Positions 1 to 50,543 of a DNA stretch of 64,000 bases are shown here, one piece after another (positions within the stretch are counted from its first letter, which is position 1; each line of letters begins with the position of its first letter). The translations under genes were made by a program, and so were the position numbers. Below the pieces are notes generated by a model. That model worked only from the letters and a program-made list of their open reading frames with translations, searched no databases and was not told the origin of the DNA. The DNA is from an uncultured delta proteobacterium (lineage in GTDB: Bacteria > Desulfobacterota > Syntrophia > Syntrophales > Fen-1087), in contig CAVPSX010000015.1 of NCBI GenBank assembly GCA_963708515.1, positions 6,396 through 70,395 of the forward strand, given 5' to 3'.

Positions 1-74
1 GCAATAGACCCCGGACTCCTCCCGGCCGAGATACCAGAAATGTCCGTGATTTTTCCCGCTTTGCGAAATCGCAT
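1..74 (-). CDS. Possible 5' end of a gene running off the left edge (MRFRKAGKITDISG...)
   Basis: ATG preceded by a GAAGGGGG RBS-like sequence, open to the window edge; no recognisable motif. Confidence 0.25.
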   Translation of the reverse strand, partial: MRFRKAGKITDISGISAGRSPGSI

Positions 75-603
75 GGCGCGCACCCCCTTCAGGTTCATAT
101 AGGTTTTCGGTCGTATGTATAGTCAATATCCGTCGTCATCGCAAGCACAAAGAAGTCAGGTTCATCCGGTGATGCGTACTTTTGATTTATAAAAGAATGA
201 AATGTATGAATCGTTCCGGAGCTTTCTTTCACCTATACGCATCCTTGATATTACCGACAGGTCATTCATTAGTTTATTGTAGTCGTGATTTCCGGCTGAT
301 GAGTTTGTGTAGCAGCTTGCAGACCGTTATGCTCAGGAGCGAACAATGAAAAAATGAAATGCGCCGGTTATTGACGCTACCTACAAGCCCTTAGCATGCC
401 CATTTTGATGAGAAACGAAGATTACCGATTGAATCTTTAATGAATCTTATTCGGAATTTCCCTCATTATACCCCAATCCTATCCCTAAAACTGGACTGGC
501 TTTCGGCTGGAGGTCAAAAGTCAGACCCGGATGCTTATGCATGAGGTTTTCCGCCTTTCGTTTCCGCCTATTTGCCCGACTTTTTCTGTGTACATCGAGT
601 GAT

Positions 604-1293
604 TCAATCAGCATTCCCTTGCCCGCGGGAATCCACGGACAGTGAAACCAGACGGGCAATAAGAATCGCCGGATAGAGCTGACCGGTGAAGGCCTCGAAC
701 ATCACAGCGGTTCGTGCAAACGGGTTCAGAGGTGTAATATCCCCGTATCCCAGTGTCGTGAGCGTGATGGTGCTGAAGTAAATGAAGTCCTGCGCCATGA
801 AATTGCTTGCTACCTGCGATGGTGTCGCGAATTGGAATGAACGGGGGGACAGATACTCGATCAGCGTATAAATAAGTGAAAAAATGACCGATAGTAGAAG
901 ATAGCCTGCGACAGCTCCCCGGACTCGGTGAGCCGTGACGGGACCTGGCCGGAAGACGTGCCACAAAACGATGGCAAGAAGGGACGTCGCGAAGAAGATC
1001 GTGAGAACTGCCTCGGTCAGGACGAAAATCGTGCTCCCAGTCGAAACCCGCAGCCAATGAACTGCTAAGTAGAGGATGACGACGAAGGCAATGGAGACCC
1101 GGAAAATCTTGCGCTCCGTCATGGCAAACAGCCCGCCTGCAAGAATCAGTGCCATGATGAGGCTGCTTATCATTCTCAGTATGCCGATCTGATTTGCCAA
1201 CGGGTTGATGACGAAAACGTAGGAGACGAGGCAGATTAAAAAAACCGACAGGCTGCGGTCTTCGTACCAGAAATTAAATAGGCGCTTCAGCAT
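604..1293 (-). CDS. Potassium channel family protein (Ion_trans_2)
   Basis: Multiple TM helices; pore motif YFSTITLTTLGYGDITP. Confidence 0.88.
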   Translation of the reverse strand: MLKRLFNFWYEDRSLSVFLICLVSYVFVINPLANQIGILRMISSLIMALILAGGLFAMTERKIFRVSIAFVVILYLAVHWLRVSTGSTIFVLTEAVLTIFFATSLLAIVLWHVFRPGPVTAHRVRGAVAGYLLLSVIFSLIYTLIEYLSPRSFQFATPSQVASNFMAQDFIYFSTITLTTLGYGDITPLNPFARTAVMFEAFTGQLYPAILIARLVSLSVDSRGQGNAD

Positions 1294-1493
1294 GGGTGCA
1301 CCGTGGTTTTCACGTCCCCTATGCCGATTCTTCTTGACGTCCGAGCTCGGGATGCTCTGCCGGCTCCCGCCAACCCAATATCGGGTGAGCCGAACTCGTA
1401 AAGCCCAATCCGACCGGCATAGGCTAACTCACCGGAAAAGATAGCCGCAAAAACCATGGCGAAAGCCACTCTGATTGATCCTGATTGTTTCAT
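1287..1493 (-). pseudogene. N-terminal fragment of a FadL/OmpP1-type outer-membrane transporter
   Basis: Signal peptide followed by IGLYEFGSPDIGLAGAGRASRA, typical of the FadL-family N-terminus; similarity stops after ~50 aa. Confidence 0.55.
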
Positions 1494-1633
1494 AAATACG
1501 TCCATTTCCATTCCGATCCAGGGGCTCTGCGCCAGGACCCTCTTTTATTTCATAAGTTCCAGCCACGCACTTATGCATGTTCCTGCGTCGGTTTCTTATG
1601 CGTCTTCCCCGTATCTCCGTCAACACATCCGGC

Positions 1634-2731
1634 TCACGGTCCGCTGGGCGGCAGCAAGTAGAGCGTGATGGCAAACATCAGGTAAACCCCGAGGACCAGC
1701 ACACCGATAAACCAGGCGCTACGGCCACCATTGGAAACCAGTGCCGCCGTAAGGGTCGCCAGCAGCATCATGAGTACTGCACCGGGCCAGAACTCCAGGG
1801 TCATGGGCGACGGCCCCAGCACGTAGCTGGCAAGAACCAGCACCGGGGCCACGAACAGGGCGATCTGCGTCGCGCTTCCCAGGGCGATGCCCACGCTGAG
1901 ATCCAGTCGGTTCTTGCGTGCAGCCGAAAACGCCGCAGCCATCTCCGCGGCACCGCCGACGAGCGCCACGACGATGAAGCCGACGAAGACGTCAGACATC
2001 CCCATCGCCTGGGCGGCTTCCTGCACGGACGCGACGAACACCTCACTGACCAGCGCGACCAGAACCGTGATACCGCCCAGGGTTACCAGCGCCAGATTGA
2101 GCGGCCAGGGCGCTTTATCTTCCTCCTCATGCACTGCCGCCGAACCGAAGAACTCGCGGTGTGTCTTGAGTGTAAACAGAAGTCCCAGACCGTAGATCAA
2201 GATCAGCAGGACGGCCAGGCACAGACTGAGATTCTGCGTAACATCCGCGATTGATTCCGCCTCCCTGCGGCCGACAACCGTCGGCAGAAACAACCCAATT
2301 GTTGCCAAAAACAAGAGACCGGCTTGAAGCCGTGCACTGGCATTATTAAATTGTTGCGCATGGTGTTTGAGTCCACCGAGCAGGAACGAGGCTCCCAGCA
2401 TGAACAATGTATTGGTCACAATCGCTCCGGCGATGGATGCCTTGACCAGCATGTACTCCCCGGCGCTCAGTGCGGTCAGGGCAATCACGAGCTCGGTCAG
2501 GTTGCCCAGCGTAGCGTTGAGCAGGCCGCCGACGTTATCGCCGGTCTTCGCAGCCACCGACTCCGTAGCGTGGCTGAGCAATGCCGCGAGTGGCACGATA
2601 GCGAGGACCGATAGCGCGAAAAGCAGGGTCTGCGCTTCCGGCCTGACCTGTTCGACGACAAACACCGCCGGCACGAACACCAGTAACCACAAGATCGGGT
2701 TGTGAATAATTTCCTTGAAGAGCAGATTCAT
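1634..2731 (-). CDS. cax: Calcium/proton exchanger (CaCA family)
   Basis: GGLLNATLGNLTEL and GSATQIALFVAP alpha-repeat motifs; ~10 TM helices. Confidence 0.92.
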   Translation of the reverse strand: MNLLFKEIIHNPILWLLVFVPAVFVVEQVRPEAQTLLFALSVLAIVPLAALLSHATESVAAKTGDNVGGLLNATLGNLTELVIALTALSAGEYMLVKASIAGAIVTNTLFMLGASFLLGGLKHHAQQFNNASARLQAGLLFLATIGLFLPTVVGRREAESIADVTQNLSLCLAVLLILIYGLGLLFTLKTHREFFGSAAVHEEEDKAPWPLNLALVTLGGITVLVALVSEVFVASVQEAAQAMGMSDVFVGFIVVALVGGAAEMAAAFSAARKNRLDLSVGIALGSATQIALFVAPVLVLASYVLGPSPMTLEFWPGAVLMMLLATLTAALVSNGGRSAWFIGVLVLGVYLMFAITLYLLPPSGP

Positions 2732-3121
2732 GTTTCACCTCCGCTGGATGGCCGGCCCCATCCCCGAGACCGGGTTGGTAGGCAAGCTGAACCGGATCAC
2801 CGGCCAGAGTATAAGACAAGGAAATCTCGTATGTCAAAGGATATATGGCGGTTAAATGGGGGATACTGAACGGAAAGTGCGGGCAGGATGTGAGGAGATC
2901 ACTCCTTCCCTGGAATATTTCAACCACCGATTCCGTTATTGTCATCTGCATGTCCCCCGTGAGCCTCCATGTCTAATATTTGATTCATTTTTGTGAATAA
3001 ATCACCCGCAGAGATTCCTTCATCATCTTTGAAGCGATGCCGGTGGAATAATGCATTGGAGGGTAAAAAACGCATGAATCAATGGTAGAATGTAATATAA
3101 TAATATATAGTATGTATCAGA

Positions 3122-3385
3122 TTAGGCATTTAATTCTTTCGAGAGACGCTCAGATAAAAATATTTTGATGAGCGATTGATATGGAACATCTCTCTTGTTG
3201 GCAATGAGCGTTAACTCTTCAAGCATGATTTGCGGCAGACGCAAAGAAATCGTTCTGAGAGAAGGCTTGATGTTGGGTAGCAAAACCCGACTTGCCTTCG
3301 ACCAGTCAATATAGTCGGAAGAATCAGCGTTTGCCCAAAATTCACGCTCTTCGGCTTCAGTTTTGAATTTAGGTATTTTTTTCAT
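3122..3385 (-). CDS. BrnA/CopG-like antitoxin
   Basis: KIPKFKTEAEEREFW N-terminus and ISLRLP...DVPYQSLIK RHH-like C-terminus. Confidence 0.85.
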   Translation of the reverse strand: MKKIPKFKTEAEEREFWANADSSDYIDWSKASRVLLPNIKPSLRTISLRLPQIMLEELTLIANKRDVPYQSLIKIFLSERLSKELNA

Positions 3386-3473
3386 GGTATTGATACGCCT
3401 CTCTTTCCTTGCAATTCATGTCTCGTGCTGAAATAATCCGGATGAGGTTATTCCTCACGGTAAATACAATAAA
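3369..3473 (-). pseudogene. brnT: C-terminal remnant of a BrnT toxin
   Basis: Translates as FIVFTVRNNLIRIISARDMNCKEREAYQYHEKNT*; RIISAR motif; in-frame TAA directly upstream, no start codon. Confidence 0.75.
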
Positions 3474-3643
3474 TTAGAATAAATCAGCAAGAAATACATT
3501 TCCAGCAAGCATGTAAAAGTCGGATGAACCAGCAGTTATGCATGGAAAATGACGGCCTTCCATGCTATGAATCCATAGCTGCCCCAATACCGACGGGGCT
3601 CCTATGATGCAAGCGCTCAGTAAGGATAATAAAGGAGGGAAAG

Positions 3644-5669
3644 ATGAAATCGATCAGCAATCTGGATGCACTCTTCAGACCGCGCAGCGTAGCCATGATC
3701 GGCGCTTCGGCCAGCCCCGGGAAACTCGGCCATGACATTCTCTACAATCTGATCCATGCCGGGTTCGGCGGGCCCATTTATCCCGTCAACCCCAAGGCGG
3801 ATGAGCTTCTCGGGTTGCGAGTTTACAAGGATATCGCCTCCCTTCCGGCGCCTCCCGATCTGGCCGTTGTCGTCATTCCTTCAAGAATGGTTTCGGGAGC
3901 CATCGAGGAATGCGGCAAACTGGGAGTCAAGGCGGCCGTCGTCGTGACCGGCGGTTTTGCCGAAGCGGGGCCGGATGGAGAAAAGCTCCAGAAGGAGCTG
4001 GCGGACATCGCCGGCCGCTATGGTGTTCGCGTCGTCGGTCCCAATTGCCAGGGGATCAACAGCCCGCACCATCATCTCTGCGCTTCCTGGCCCCTGATTA
4101 CCGCCAGGGGCAAGATTGCCTTTGTTTCACAGAGCGGCACTGTCGGGGCGGCGCTCATCGACTGGGCCAGCCAAGATCAGATCGGTTTCAGCGTGTTTGT
4201 CAGTCTGGGCAACCGGGCGGACGTGGACGAGGCGGACTGCATCCGGTATTTCAATGAAGATCCGGACACAAAAGTGATCGCCATCTACATGGAAGGGGTC
4301 AAGCGGCCTGCCTTATTTCTGGAATCCCTTGAACGGGCGACGAAGCCCATCGTGATCCTGAAGGCCGGGCGGACGGCCCGCGGCCGCGTCGCGGCGGAAA
4401 GCCACACGAAATCCCTGGCGGGCGACGACGCCATCTACGGGGCGATCTTCGATAAGTACAAGGTTCATCGGGCCGACAACCTCGAAGAACTCTACGATTT
4501 TGCCAAGGCCCTGGCGTATATGGAAAAGCCTTCCGGAAAGCGCCTGCTCAATATTTCCAGTTCCGGCGGCGCGGCCATTCTGGCCATCGACGAGGCGGAG
4601 AAACTGGGATTCGAAAATCCGGCGCCGTCGAAAGCGCTGCAGCAGCGGTTGCGGGCCTTTCTGCCGGCCCACTGCGGGGTCAGCAATCCCATTGATCTCA
4701 CGGGCGACGCCATCTCTGATCCCAGCCTTTACGCCAAAGTCATAGCCGCCGCCAAGTCGGACTATGACACAAGCGTGGTGATCTTCGGCGATCCCATTCA
4801 CGGCGCGTCCGACATTGTCACCGGAAAAGGTGAACTGATCGTCTACTGCGGAGGCGCCGACGTGGAGCGTGAGGAAACCATACTGCTGCATCGCAAAGGG
4901 ATTCCCGTCTATCCGACGCCGGAGCGAGGCATTCGGGCCCTCTACCAGCTTGTCCGCTTCGATGAAGCCCGGCCTGCAAAAAAAGCCCCGCATGCGGCCG
5001 CGCCGGAAACGGCTCTGAACCTCATGCCGGCCCGGAAGGCCGCCGCCTTGCTGAAGAAATACGGGGTTTCCGCCGTGGACGCAAAGCTGGCGCCGTCGTC
5101 AAAGGATGCGGTCGCGCTGGCAAGGAAATATAAAAAACCGGTGGTTCTCAAGATTGCCTCCCCGGATGTGGCTCACAAAACCGATGTCGGCGGGGTCCGG
5201 CTCAATCTGGCCAAAGCGTCGGAGGTCAAAAGCGCCTTTGAAGATATCGTGAAAAGTGTCCGGAGGAAGGCGCCGGGCGCGCGGATTGAAGGCGTTACGG
5301 TTTCACCCATGGCCGATCCGGGCGGGCTGGAGATCATATCTAGGCGTCATCAAGGATCCCCAGTACGGGCCTGCCCTGATGTTCGGCCTGGGCGGGATTT
5401 TCACGGAAATTTACAGGGATGTGCAGTTCTGCCTGCTGCCGGGTACGGTTAATGAGTTCCGGCGCATGATCAGAGGCATCAAGGGTTATCCGCTGCTTTC
5501 CGGCGTTCGCGGCCAGCAGCCGAAGGACGAGAAGGCCCTGATCGGGATCATGAAAGCCCTGTCAAATCTGGTCAAGGACCATCCGGAGATCGACCAGATC
5601 GATCTGAACCCGGTTCTGGTTTATGAAGAGGGCGTGGCGGTGGTTGACTACCGGATTTATGCCCGGTAA
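3644..5669 (+). CDS. Fused acetate/acyl-CoA ligase (ADP-forming), CoA-binding plus ATP-grasp; frameshift near 5340
   Basis: GPNCQG, SQSGT, SHTKSLAG and HKTDVGGV motifs; C-terminus (LGVIKDPQYGPALMFGLGG...DLNPV) continues in another frame. Confidence 0.88.
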
Positions 5670-5677
5670 GGGGGCCG

Positions 5678-6217
5678 TCATGGCTGTTGAATCAGCTTTT
5701 TCAGTTCCCCCGCGAAGACATCGTACATTTTCCGGCTGAACAGCACGAAGCGGACCAGATCAAGATCGCCGTGTTCCCCGAGGTAGTCCATGGCGGTCCT
5801 CAGGGCAATGCGGGCTGCCTCCTCGAGCGGATAAGCGTAAACGCCGGTGCTGATCGCGGGGAAAGCCAGGCTTTTCAATCCTCTGGCGGACGCCAGTTTC
5901 AGGCTTTCCAGATAAGCGCTTTTGAGCAGGGCCGCTTCTCCGCTACCGCCGCCCTGGTAGACGGGACCGACCGTATGGATGACGTATCGGGCCTTGAGGC
6001 TGCCGCCTGCGGTGATCACGGCCTGACCGGTCGGACAGCCGCCGATCTTGCGGCATTCCGACATGATGGAAGGTCCTCCGGCTGCGTGAATGGCGCCGTC
6101 CACGCCGGCCCCCCCTGCCAGCCTCGTATTGGCGGCATTGACGACAGCGTCCGTTTCCTGCAGGGTAATATCACCCTGAATGAGGGATAAAGTGGCGTTA
6201 TTTATTTTGATATCCAT
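5678..6217 (-). CDS. Macro domain protein, O-acetyl-ADP-ribose deacetylase (YmdB-like)
   Basis: GDIT, VNAAN, GGAGVDGAIH, FPAISTGVY motifs. Confidence 0.92.
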   Translation of the reverse strand: MDIKINNATLSLIQGDITLQETDAVVNAANTRLAGGAGVDGAIHAAGGPSIMSECRKIGGCPTGQAVITAGGSLKARYVIHTVGPVYQGGGSGEAALLKSAYLESLKLASARGLKSLAFPAISTGVYAYPLEEAARIALRTAMDYLGEHGDLDLVRFVLFSRKMYDVFAGELKKLIQQP

Positions 6218-6401
6218 AGCCGGGCTCCTTTCCTGACCTTCCGTATAATGAAATGACGAAAAACTGTAAAGGAAAACTTGGCTGAGCCGACAGGAAAGCC
6301 TTTTCACTTGAATATTGGGCTCTTAAATGATATACGTAAAATTATTTGTGTCCTGTTGATTGCGGGATGACCTCTGCCGGCAGGCCTCCTTTCCTTGATT
6401 T

Positions 6402-6803
6402 ATGGCATTGAACAAAAATAAGAGTACTGAAGATGTCCTTCAGGAAGAGTTTCTTCGGGAAAGAGCGGCTGTCTTGGGTCGGGCAGGGGATAGTGTTTCC
6501 AGGGCTCTCGAAAAATTGCACAGCATTGAAAACAGCCTGGAGGAAAGGATGGACCGGCTGGCGGAGATTGAACGGCTCGTCTCGCAGGATTTGACCGATG
6601 CCCGCAGCCTGAGCCAATTACGTCGTCAGATAGTTGCTGAAATCAATTGGGAGATCAGCAGATTCAACGGAGCTCGCGAATATGCCCTGATGAGGCTCTA
6701 TTATCTGATCGTCACCCGTGAAGCGATGGGAATGAGGCGGCATCATTGGGTGGACCAGCACTACCGTGTACCGCCGCGAAAAAAACATCTGCAGGATGAC
6801 TGA
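6402..6803 (+). CDS. Hypothetical coiled-coil protein
   Basis: 133-aa ORF whose stop overlaps the pcm start; helical and charged. Confidence 0.7.
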
Positions 6804-7456
6804 TGGACAGATATACAAAACAACGCATGAGGATGGTGGATACGCAGATCCACGCCCGAGGGGTCAAAGATGTACACCTCTTGAAGGTGATGCAAGCGGT
6901 TCCCCGCCATCTGTTTGTGGAAGAAGCCATGATGGATCAGGCCTATAACGACAATCCCCTGCCCATTGGTGAGAATCAGACCATATCGCAACCCTATATT
7001 GTAGCATTGATGACGGAGGCGCTGTCCTTGACGGGAAAGGAAAAGGTGCTCGAGATCGGGACCGGTTCCGGGTATCAAACCGCCATTCTGGCACAACTTG
7101 CCGACCGGGTTTTTTCAATCGAACGGATTGCATCATTGGCCGGCAGGGCAAGAAAAATACTCGATTACCTGCATGCCTTTAATGTGGCGATCCGGGTGGG
7201 AGACGGGACGTACGGTTGGAAGGAAGAAGCGCCCTTTGACGCCATCCTCGTAACAGCCGGCGCCCCCAAGGTTTCCTCCATCTTGGTGGGGCAGCTCAGC
7301 CTGGGGGGCAGGCTGGTCATTCCGGTGGGGAACCGCTTGACGCAGACCCTCATGAAGGTGACGCGCCTTTCCGATGATATCCACGATATCAAGAAGGAAG
7401 ATCTGGGCGGATGCCGGTTTGTCGATCTCATCGGGGAGCACGGTTGGGAAAATTGA
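6803..7456 (+). CDS. pcm: Protein-L-isoaspartate O-methyltransferase
   Basis: [30 protein letters not shown] motifs. Confidence 0.96.
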
Positions 7457-7488
7457 ACACACATCCCCGTGAACGGGTCAGCAGATGG

Positions 7489-8694
7489 ATGATTATTCTG
7501 ATCATCGGCTTCCTTTTTCCTGCCTGTTCGGGACAGCCTGTCAAATCGATGAAGACGTATCAGGCCAAGGGTATATATCACCACGTAAAAAGCGGAGAAA
7601 CCCTCTACCTCATTGCACGGGCATACAATGTGAACGTGCAGGAACTGGCAGAAGCAAATAATATTCAAGACCCGAGCCGGATTGAAGCGGACAGTGTTAT
7701 TTTTGTTCCCGATGCCAGGCAGGCGATCGATGACATCATCGCCTCGATGGATAAAAGGCGTCCTGCGACCGGCGACGTTGTGCCAAAAGCAGGTCAACCC
7801 GTGGTCAAGCAGCCTCCGGAAGGTGTCCGGGCGCCGGTGAAGCCGCCCGTCCGGGAAGCGACCATGCCGTCCCGAGCGGAAACACCCTCCGAGGCGACGG
7901 CCATGCGGCCCCGAACCGAAGCACCCCCCGGGGTATCGTCCATGCGGCCCAGAACGGAATCACCCATCGTGGTATCGACCATGCCGTCCCGAGTGGAAAC
8001 ACCCTCCGGGGTATCGGCCATAACGCCGCGAGTGGAAGCAACCCCCGGTATGTCGGCCATCCGCATCAAGCCGTCAAAGGTGCTGGAGCGTTTTCCTGAA
8101 GCATCCCGTGAAGGAGGCAAAGTCACTGCTCCCGTCTCTGAGAAAGAACCGCCTGCCCGGCATGCGGAACATACCTCCCTTGTGGTGCAAAAACCTGAAC
8201 AGGTGCATGAGCGGGTAGATCCTCCACCCGCTGCGGCCGCCGAGGTATCCCAGGGCATACCTGAATCTCCGGTAGTAACCGCGCCGACGAAGGCAGATGG
8301 CGAGACCCTTCAGTTTGACCGGAAGCGGTTTATCTGGCCCGTGAAGGGCAGGGTGGTCTCGCGGTTCGGAATCCAGCCGAATGGCATGTACTATAACGGG
8401 ATTACCATCGTTGCAGGGGAAGACAGACCGGTGGTTGCCGCCGCCAGGGGAGCCGTCATCTTCTCAGGTCTTCTGAAGGATTATGGAGAAACGATCATTA
8501 TCAAGCACGAGGATCATTATGCCACCGTGTATACCCGCCTGGGGCAACGGAAGGTCAAACTCGATGATCGCGTCAAACAGACCGAGATGATTGGTTATTT
8601 GGGAAAAGGTGAAGAAAAAGGGGGCGGATCCCGCTTGAACTTTGAGATCCGCCATCACAACAAAGCGCGCAACCCGATGTTTTTTTTACCATAG
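7489..8694 (+). CDS. nlpD: LysM + M23 lipoprotein (NlpD-like); start could be the TTG at 7453
   Basis: Lipobox FPAC, LysM (HHVKSGETLYLIA), Pro-rich linker, C-terminal WPVKG...NP M23 fold; follows pcm. Confidence 0.8.
   Translation: MIILIIGFLFPACSGQPVKSMKTYQAKGIYHHVKSGETLYLIARAYNVNVQELAEANNIQDPSRIEADSVIFVPDARQAIDDIIASMDKRRPATGDVVPKAGQPVVKQPPEGVRAPVKPPVREATMPSRAETPSEATAMRPRTEAPPGVSSMRPRTESPIVVSTMPSRVETPSGVSAITPRVEATPGMSAIRIKPSKVLERFPEASREGGKVTAPVSEKEPPARHAEHTSLVVQKPEQVHERVDPPPAAAAEVSQGIPESPVVTAPTKADGETLQFDRKRFIWPVKGRVVSRFGIQPNGMYYNGITIVAGEDRPVVAAARGAVIFSGLLKDYGETIIIKHEDHYATVYTRLGQRKVKLDDRVKQTEMIGYLGKGEEKGGGSRLNFEIRHHNKARNPMFFLP
7864..8058 (+). repeat. Five degenerate 39-bp (13-aa) coding tandem repeats in the NlpD linker
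   Basis: MPSRAETPSEATA / MRPRTEAPPGVSS / MRPRTESPIVVST / MPSRVETPSGVSA / ITPRVEATPGMSA. Confidence 0.85.
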
Positions 8695-8715
8695 AGGCGA
8701 TGTGATCCGGAAACA

Positions 8716-8901
8716 CATACCGAAGAAAAACGGCTTCGCTGCGGCTCACAATCATTTTCGATATAAGATATTAGAATTCTTTAAAATATTTATAAAATCA
8801 ATAATTTAGTCATGGGGACATTTATGGAGTCGTGTACCTATAGCGAAAAATCTTTCATTTGCCGCTTGCGAACCATTTTTCTTCGGTTATGTAAAGCTCT
8901 C
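8716..8901 (+). mobile_element. MITE-like inverted-repeat element, copy A (long form)
   Basis: Shares ACC..GAAAAA(T/C)GGCTTCGC left arm, CCGCTTGCGAACCATTTTT..GGTTATGTAAAGCTCTC right arm and central AATCAATAA with copies at 24787, 26589 and 47021. Confidence 0.8.
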
Positions 8902-8923
8902 AAAGAGTCAGGAGTTTACAAGA

Positions 8924-24786: not shown

Positions 24787-24974
24787 GAGACCTTTGAAAA
24801 ATGGCTTCGCCGCGGCTCAAAATCTTTTTCGCATGAAATATGATAAGGCTCAAATTTGTTAGAAATCAATAAAATAGTCATGGGGAGGGGGCTTGACGGA
24901 GTCGTGTCCCCATCAACGAAAAATCTTTGATTCGCCGCTTGCGAACCATTTTTCACCGGTTACACAAAGCTTTC
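24787..24974 (+). mobile_element. MITE-like inverted-repeat element, copy B (long form)
   Basis: GAGACCTTTGAAAAATGG...CCATTTTTCACCGGTTACACAAAGCTTTC; homologous to copies A, C and D. Confidence 0.85.
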
Positions 24975-26588: not shown

Positions 26589-26752
26589 GAAACCGTTGAA
26601 AAATGGCTTCACAGCGACTCAAAAACTTTATCCTAAAAATATCATAAAGCTTACATATCTTTTAACCAATAAATTAGCCCAATTTCCGGATATGCGATAA
26701 ATCTTTGATTCACCGCCTGCGAACCATTTTTCACCGGTTATGCAATGCTTTC
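26589..26752 (+). mobile_element. MITE-like inverted-repeat element, copy C (short form)
   Basis: GAAACCGTTGAAAAATGGCTTC...GCGAACCATTTTTCACCGGTTATGCAATGCTTTC. Confidence 0.82.
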
Positions 26753-47020: not shown

Positions 47021-47186
47021 GAGACCGGTGGAAAATGGCTTCGCCGCGTCTCAAAATCTTTTTCGCTGGAAATATGATAATGCTAATTTATGATTGGAAT
47101 CAATAAATTAGTCTAATCTCTGGAAAGTCGAAAAATCTTTGATTCGCCGCATGCGAACCATTTTCCACAGGTTATGCAAAGCTCTC
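47021..47186 (+). mobile_element. MITE-like inverted-repeat element, copy D (short form)
   Basis: GAGACCGGTGGAAAATGGCTTCGCCGCG...GCGAACCATTTTCCACAGGTTATGCAAAGCTCTC. Confidence 0.85.
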
Positions 47187-50353: not shown

Positions 50354-50412
50354 AAGTGCTTTGCATAACCGGTGAGAAATGGTTCGCAAGCGGTGAATCA
50401 AATATTTTTCGA
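50354..50412 (-). mobile_element. Right-arm half copy of the MITE-like element (copy E), inverted
   Basis: Reverse complement reads CGAAAAATATTTGATTCACCGCTTGCGAACCATTTCTCACCGGTTATGCAAAGCAC. Confidence 0.8.
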
Positions 50413-50543
50413 ATTTTCACGGCTGAGGAATTTCCAGTCGCCTTTTTCAGTAGCAGGTGAACCACGCAACATCTCTTACAGGGCCACGCTACAAAGGGCA
50501 CGCCCCTGTCATATGACCCTCTTTGCAATGGATGGGTGAACGC

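Follow-up and report, generated by a model that had tools for sequence, protein, structure and literature searches.

An IS5-ended MITE family of Syntrophales in which mirrored arm substitutions are likely made in place by template switching

Introduction

Two IS5-family MITEs with ISPg1/ISNme1 ends, BrickBuilt (Porphyromonas gingivalis) and ATR (Neisseria meningitidis), are the closest described counterparts of the repeat analyzed here, which has the same terminal motif (PMC4596501, in its available portion). Like the present repeat, they are described in that portion as non-coding and intergenic, with both empty and filled sites and a parent inferred from the ends (PMC4596501). The repeat differs from BrickBuilt/ATR as available (PMC4596501) in having a different interior, ~90 full copies rather than 19, a uniform 5-bp duplication and long imperfect arms with a nested second partner. 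Non-random SNPs are reported for BrickBuilt/ATR, with no arm-to-arm copying described in the same portion of the paper (PMC4596501).

Template switching in quasi-palindromes has been described in Escherichia coli thyA and lacZ, T4 rII and yeast, where, in the sections available of three reports (PMC5941160, PMC7202029, PMC8604942), arms are made more perfect, several bases change in one step, spacers are inverted and the same events recur in parallel, all of which resembles what is found here. In a difference with those reporters (PMC5941160, PMC7202029, PMC8604942, as available), the arms of the MITE lie far apart (L9 to R39, ~140-160 nt, numbering given below), the tracts are seemingly only 2-9 nt, a nearby bulge is unrepaired, the direction is strongly one-way and the same target is present at hundreds of natural loci. 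Template switching that creates and maintains RNA hairpins likewise makes multi-base compensatory changes by one mutational event, and the cases in the available part of PMC8794818 are functional RNA genes, whereas an RNA function of the MITE here is hypothetical. The Correia/NEMIS and ERIC RNA-processing signals, as far as the accessible text of PMC3184786 describes them, are similar in being MITE-sized with a long predicted stem-loop, a position near gene ends and an IHF-like core site; compared with them the MITE here has different ends and no transcription-linked bias (PMC3184786).

Results and Discussion

Copies in the window

The window is the whole stretch of DNA analyzed, 64,000 nt of a 2.8 Mb draft genome in 23 contigs (G000), and contains four copies of the repeat and one remnant. 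Positions in the element are numbered L1-L46 for its first bases (8716 onwards in copy A) and R1-R58 for its last 58 (8844-8901 in copy A).

8711..8715, no strand: left target site duplication, 5 bp, AAACA; present as a single 5-mer copy at empty sites
8716..8901, + strand: copy A, a MITE copy of 186 bp, long subtype with an inner hairpin
8716..8760, + strand: left arm L1-L45; L1-L15 are the left terminal inverted repeat, which in copy A has decayed
8716..8724, + strand: likely templated tract L1-L9, complementing 8882-8891 with one A skipped and differing from the G001 orthologue at L1, L3 and L9
8796..8808, + strand: part of the AT-rich spacer of copy A matching the IHF-site consensus
8812..8841, + strand: inner hairpin module, REP-like; in copy A it has decayed with no compensating changes; found outside the MITE too in relatives
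8844..8887, + strand: inner right arm R1-R44, pairs with the left arm
8888..8901, + strand: tail R45-R58, 14 nt, which with R44 forms the right terminal inverted repeat, IS5 type
8902..8906, no strand: right target site duplication, 5 bp, AAAGA, one change from the left
24787..24974, + strand: copy B, 188 bp, with the ancestral unpaired TT/CC at L7-L8/R41-R40
26589..26752, + strand: copy C, 164 bp
47021..47186, + strand: copy D, 166 bp, with GG in the left arm plus a mirrored change at L11/R37; G002 and G004 have the site empty
50355..50419, - strand: right-arm-only remnant

A nested inverted repeat had been placed at 8716..8901 by the first-pass annotation, and its coordinates are exact, with 5-bp direct repeats on both sides. 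In copy A ACCGAAGAAAAA is located at 8719-8730 and TTTTTCTTCGGT at 8876-8887. The ~14 nt said to stay outside the long hairpin correspond to a real 14-nt tail; the letters quoted for it are the family consensus, and copy A reads TATGTAAAGCTCTC.

Copy A is separated by 21 bp from the preceding gene and by 22 bp from the next on the same strand, its neighbors being an M23/NlpD-like gene and a radical SAM gene (matches below curated cut-offs). A 39-bp tandem repeat at window 7846-8063 lies within the M23/NlpD-like gene. No Rfam match is found in the window at gathering scores. Window 1-8768 recurs at ~97% identity on contig C2 of G000, which stops inside copy A, and together with other near-duplicate contigs this indicates that the assembly mixes strains. 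The IHF-consensus match occurs in 77/229 copies and is no more conserved across the 229 than the rest of the spacer, so it was dropped as a selected feature. The GGGGAC...GTCCCC module (window 8812-8841) is also found alone and in an unrelated repeat family (L017, L018, L381, L391) and thus resembles separately moving cargo. The intergenic gaps of relatives that correspond to copies B, C and D are occupied by other repeat families or by decayed copies (L381-L391), which suggests insertion hot spots.

Ends, target sites and candidate transposases

A profile built from the four window copies and searched against G000 gives 210 hits at E <= 0.01, merging into 168 loci with 92 full copies of 133-191 bp. 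The repeat is short, non-coding, multicopy and intergenic, and ends in 15-bp terminal inverted repeats that are complementary at 12/15 positions in the reference arms. Across the 92 full copies the 5-nt flanks are 63.7% identical compared with 27.8% when shuffled (maximum 33.9%), being perfect in 21/92 and carrying at most one mismatch in 42/92; flanks of 3, 4, 6, 7 or 8 nt in the same copies show identity at background only. The target duplication of Correia/NEMIS and ERIC elements is TA. Among five relatives, site A is filled in G001 and G006 and empty in G002, G003 and G004, and site D is empty in two (G002, G004). The family has matches in 16/61 genomes searched and is dense within the genus, and among the matches listed (80 of 117) most named records containing the right arm bear the title Syntrophales, Syntrophaceae, Syntrophus sp. 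or delta proteobacterium.

The same end motif is present at both ends of 14 DUF772 transposase loci of the order (30 loci examined of 281 matches). Perfect 5-bp duplications surround 4/14 of these IS elements with both ends found, and two of their transposases pass NF033581 IS5 with 182 and 177.6 bits (cut-off 140). The published IS5 end of ISNme1 matches 14/15 bases of the MITE left end and 13/15 of the right end, and that of ISPg1 matches 12/12 bases of the left end (PMC4596501, available portion). The family is likely a MITE mobilized in trans by an IS5-family transposase. It is a new family of a known class, the IS5-ended MITEs such as ATR and BrickBuilt. Neither the family nor arm-to-arm overwriting in a bacterial MITE is described in the literature searched, which takes in few subscription journals and excludes the MITE-census supplements (PMC11602168) that may list the family.

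A search of the 23-contig draft of G000 with NF033581, PF05598 or a protein query gives no cognate transposase, and because no matching enzyme is found in the assembly the copies are probably immobile in this genome now; across 11 family genomes there are weak or partial matches in 3. A PF01609 hit in G000 has other ends and was ruled out as the parent, as was the one Y1 transposase gene of G000, beside which no MITE copy is located. The 71 loose end-motif matches outside known copies in G000 include no obvious IS, and a left/right end pair 1.8 kb apart in G008 is formed not by an IS but by two decayed copies flanking housekeeping genes. Viral contigs give 7 matches to the left end, none MITE-like beyond the 18-mer.

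The repeat does not belong with REPIN/RAYT systems, as no REPs flank the Y1 transposase and terminal repeats with a 5-bp duplication are present instead. It is also highly improbable that the hairpin is a single-stranded DNA substrate of a mobilizing enzyme of REP/RAYT or IS200/IS605 type, with pairing selected for mobility: the DNA folds are stable (-19 to -34 kcal/mol), the interior modules are REP-like and the genome has its one Y1 transposase, but terminal repeats combined with 5-bp duplications indicate a DDE enzyme, the Y1 gene is without an adjacent copy, and the mirrored changes described below are post-insertion, even in copy A with its decayed left end.

The inner right arm, we infer, represents a terminal repeat that is older or was duplicated, with the 14-nt tail being the working right end; as the right terminal inverted repeat, the tail needs no structural explanation. 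An autonomous IS5 element at L112:2566-2603 has its right end tandemly duplicated 19 bp apart, a possible model for the origin of the nested end. Sister MITE families with the same IS5-type ends and 5-bp duplication and with different palindromic interiors are present in G013 (L236-L260), G021 (L250, L262), G031 (L235-L263) and G043 (L237-L257); the G021 family is the only one of these with a nested end, and the G043 family has related arms without it. At L004:1496-1810 two different MITEs of the same end type stand in tandem, one 5-mer occurring thrice, between and flanking them.

Stem geometry and predicted fold

The inner stem is formed by L4-L18 with R44-R30, a one-base bulge at L19, and then L20-L45 with R29-R1, with interruptions, and the outer pairing would place L1-L15 against R58-R44. 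The fold of copy A is predicted at -47.4 kcal/mol with a z score of -4.16 (200 shuffles) and uses only the outer ~30 nt of the arms. Pairing of the left arm with the inner right arm, as first described, is confirmed; its length of ~45 bp is a span with bulges, copy A having ~33/37 scored pairs and three uncompensated changes (L16, L34, L39). The accompanying proposal that the left arm has two alternative partners is not supported by the predicted pairing. For copies A-D the pairing probability of the left arm is 0.99-1.0 with the inner arm and <=0.001 with the outer end, forcing the outer pairing costs 6-28 kcal/mol, and at that probability the outer end was ruled out as a genuine alternative fold. 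The outer partner is complementary at 12/15 positions only and is without mirrored excess.

Mirrored substitutions in the two arms

Covariation was assessed by permutation and slid-register tests in 121 copies of G000 (3/124 rows removed, being duplicates or artefacts of merging, with a few partial copies retained) and in 144 copies from eight relatives, a set biased toward well-kept copies because these were picked mostly as best matches. The G000 copies contain 30 double changes that keep a pair compared with 8.64 +/- 2.68 in 5000 shuffles, and 18 compared with 4.08 when L7-L8 are left out. In the relatives 28 mirrored changes are seen against 7.82 shuffled, and 14 against 4.44 without L7-L8. 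The excess expected of a larger copy set therefore held in both, and the two arms change in step far above chance. In the core, 14 mirrored changes are present where 2.0 are expected.

No mirrored excess occurs in the outer repeat (10 vs 8.41, P 0.33 in G000; 14 vs 11.4, P 0.25 in the relatives), slid registers are not significant in G000 (P 0.06-1.0), and the inner stem half in relatives has no excess (3 vs 1.7, P 0.24). Covariation of L43 with R3, which makes up 9/18 inner-half events, is a subfamily trait and was left out of the replication test. Of the substitutions first reported as mirrored within individual copies, those of copies A and D are real, D having G/C as quoted, and the arms quoted for copies B and C are the family consensus.

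A two-base overwrite at L7-L8

Most copies carry an ancestral TT/CC mismatch at L7-L8/R41-R40. Where the left arm departs from it in the 229 full copies, GG is found with right CC in 25/29, GA with CT in 7/9 and GC with CG in 8/9. L8 pairs with R40 in 41/47 copies having L7=G vs 7/135 having L7=T (P 6e-27), and by genome the L7=G copies pair in 14/17, 9/11, 5/6 and 13/13 cases. A third set of 56 further copies, among the matches listed (80 of 117 loci), gives 4/4 vs 3/41, and the derived R40 alleles alone give 16/19 vs 2/66; in mini forms the signal is weak (3/7 vs 0/17). These counts show that L7-L8 of the left arm change jointly to the complement of the R41-R40 allele of the same copy. The direction is right to left in 40 cases and left to right in 3, with 2-3 further tail-less candidates. 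At L7, lone changes that pair are as rare as those that do not (G 5, A 6, C 4), which disfavors stepwise selection for pairing.

Pairing beyond L4 is not enriched in converted copies (6/57 vs 33/258), core mismatches average 0.66 in converted and 0.64 in unconverted copies, and mirrored core changes are not tied to L7-L8 conversion (4/13 vs 46/216 copies, P 0.49). Judged by the remainder of the sequence, converted GG and GA copies do not form clades in a distance test and are found in four interior types; the GG copies lie at a distance of 0.162 vs 0.175 for random draws, 20% of which are as low. R40 (window 8883 in copy A) is the most variable base of the outer stem (C, G, T), often differs between orthologues and has a high C-to-G rate.

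Orthologous copies and exchange between loci

Orthologues were compared in 28 pairs at 18 sites, which are not independent and about four of which may represent distinct insertions very close to one another. The L7 state differs in 9/28 pairs, at 7 sites. L138 and L047 have five private changes in common, on both arms, yet read TT and GA at L7-L8. In the three genomes with site A filled the stem reads GAA/TTC, GAT/ATC and AAT/ATT and is fully paired in each, all three having L8=A and R40=T, with a private R17 change common to G000 and G006. The bases of copy A that differ from G001 (L1, L3, L9) all agree with the complement of R39-R48 of that copy if one A is skipped, and L1-L9 resemble the tail of the same copy, not the left end of the family. 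The mirrored changes arise after insertion.

Interior type differs in 15/28 orthologous pairs (type caller with at least one miscall), for example between L138 and L047 despite the same duplication and private arm changes, and loci therefore exchange sequence with other copies. In four copies from relatives the interior is inverted with respect to the ends. Three of these have perfect 5-bp duplications, and no such copy is found in G000; this spacer inversion product is also expected from ordinary crossover between the arms.

Such exchange bears on a phylogenetic reading of the covariation, in which a few master copies passed on the mirrored states or gene conversion carried them from locus to locus. 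L43/R3 is plainly a subfamily trait of this kind (9/18 inner-half events), the interior exchange is common (15/28 pairs) and could also hold arms near the consensus, and the distance test places its two GC/CG copies near each other (0.086 vs 0.176). The GG and GA copies, however, are not clustered, the left arm tracks the right allele of its own copy with derived alleles included, L138 and L047 differ at L7-L8 in spite of common private changes on both arms, and L1-L9 of copy A match their own tail rather than the family left end, which makes a phylogenetic origin very unlikely.

Template switching between the arms

The element is best explained as an IS5-ended non-coding repeat, likely a MITE moved in trans, whose mirrored substitutions probably arise in place when the polymerase switches templates between the two imperfect arms. 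The nascent strand would fold back on the already copied arm, copy a few bases and return. As one such event would make both changes, a double change that appears compensatory would need no selection. Recombination between copies would swap interiors, crossover between the arms would flip the interior, and slippage between short direct repeats would give minis of 60-90 bp. Arm homogenization, multi-base change and spacer inversion are signatures of template switching in the available portions of PMC8604942 and PMC5941160. Homogenization by template switching, one of the options in the first-pass annotation, agrees with a two-base overwrite that follows the other arm, with single steps that are not enriched, with post-insertion events and with the interior-inverted copies. 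We infer the template-switching mechanism itself from these sequence patterns.

Mismatches are co-repaired at L7-L8 and at L1-L9 of copy A and not at core mismatches or at the L19 bulge, whose spacing is kept in 216/229 copies and which is removed in about one; the conversion tracts look very short. A test for replication-strand bias gave P 0.017 at first and then 0.03-1.0 across skew measures and thresholds, the initial value failing to persist.

The arms diverge 2-4 times more slowly than the spacer and tail. In most blocks 4-9% of arm sites differ between orthologues, rising to 11% in L26-30 and 21% in L20-24, and the corresponding values are 19% for the tail and 13% or more for the aligned flanks; distance from the consensus is 16-18% in the spacer and mostly 3-7% in the arms. 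Templated repair resolves ~1/6 of mismatches by our own arithmetic from 147 unpaired and 14 mirrored core sites, and as the observed repair is too rare for this conservation, selection on sequence or structure, or conversion between copies, must contribute. A speculative extension, which we regard as rather unlikely, is a self-editing hairpin in which directional, very short templating rewrites the left end from the copy's own inner right arm after insertion, in ~1 copy in 5, breaking the transposon end and sealing the stem, with the host keeping sealed arms under selection. If so, the element would carry its own path from mobile DNA to a fixed regulatory hairpin.

The slow arms are also what would be seen if the MITE were domesticated as a co-transcript RNA hairpin, a substrate of RNase III/RNase E or a stabilizer, with host selection keeping the pairing and template switching only supplying variants. 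ERIC and Correia elements behave so (PMC3184786, in its available text). Under this reading the arms vary less than tail, flanks and spacer, the 14 isolated mirrored pairs vs 2 expected stand without co-conversion, the favored direction yields a G-C pair rather than A-T pairs, and copy A lies 21 bp after and 22 bp before same-strand genes. Selection of the stem as RNA, also raised in the first-pass annotation, is nevertheless not supported by the observations that bear on it. G-U-compatible mismatches ignore the transcribed strand (47:48 vs 64:84, P 0.36) and orientation to genes is unbiased (69 vs 83, P 0.29), both on crude gene calls of our own and the former with modest power. On the same gene calls, copies lying between divergent genes have a similar stem mismatch load (3.2 vs 2.5-2.9) and older tails. 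A single L7 change that forms a pair is no commoner than one that does not, the unpaired arm bases (L36-L38, R23-R24) are about as conserved as paired ones, and copy A combines its three uncompensated changes in the stem with an inner hairpin that has decayed. The sequencing runs matched comprise one RNA run (share 0.06 of the words) and 4 untyped runs, all of them as contigs only, and are silent on transcription or processing. A selected RNA hairpin is unlikely, and since templated mutation produces covariation too, covariation is not diagnostic of one.

A selected RNA structure is normally argued from covariation between stem arms. In this family the covariation is strong, replicated across genomes and nonetheless best read as one-step DNA templating, a cautionary example for screens of repeats and MITEs with R-scape or CMfinder. 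The element class is ordinary and the mutational mechanism known, and the documentation in natural loci is unusually good. With one quasi-palindrome at hundreds of loci and with outgroups, the family is a natural reporter from which one can count how often, over what tract length and in which direction templates are switched in uncultured bacteria.

Mini forms of ~63 and ~87 bp stand where relatives have full copies, at G000:C2:145284-145348 (full in L041), G000:C12:183918-184008 (L056) and G000:C6:41381-41468 (L052, L087), and they fit deletions between two short direct repeats common to both arms.
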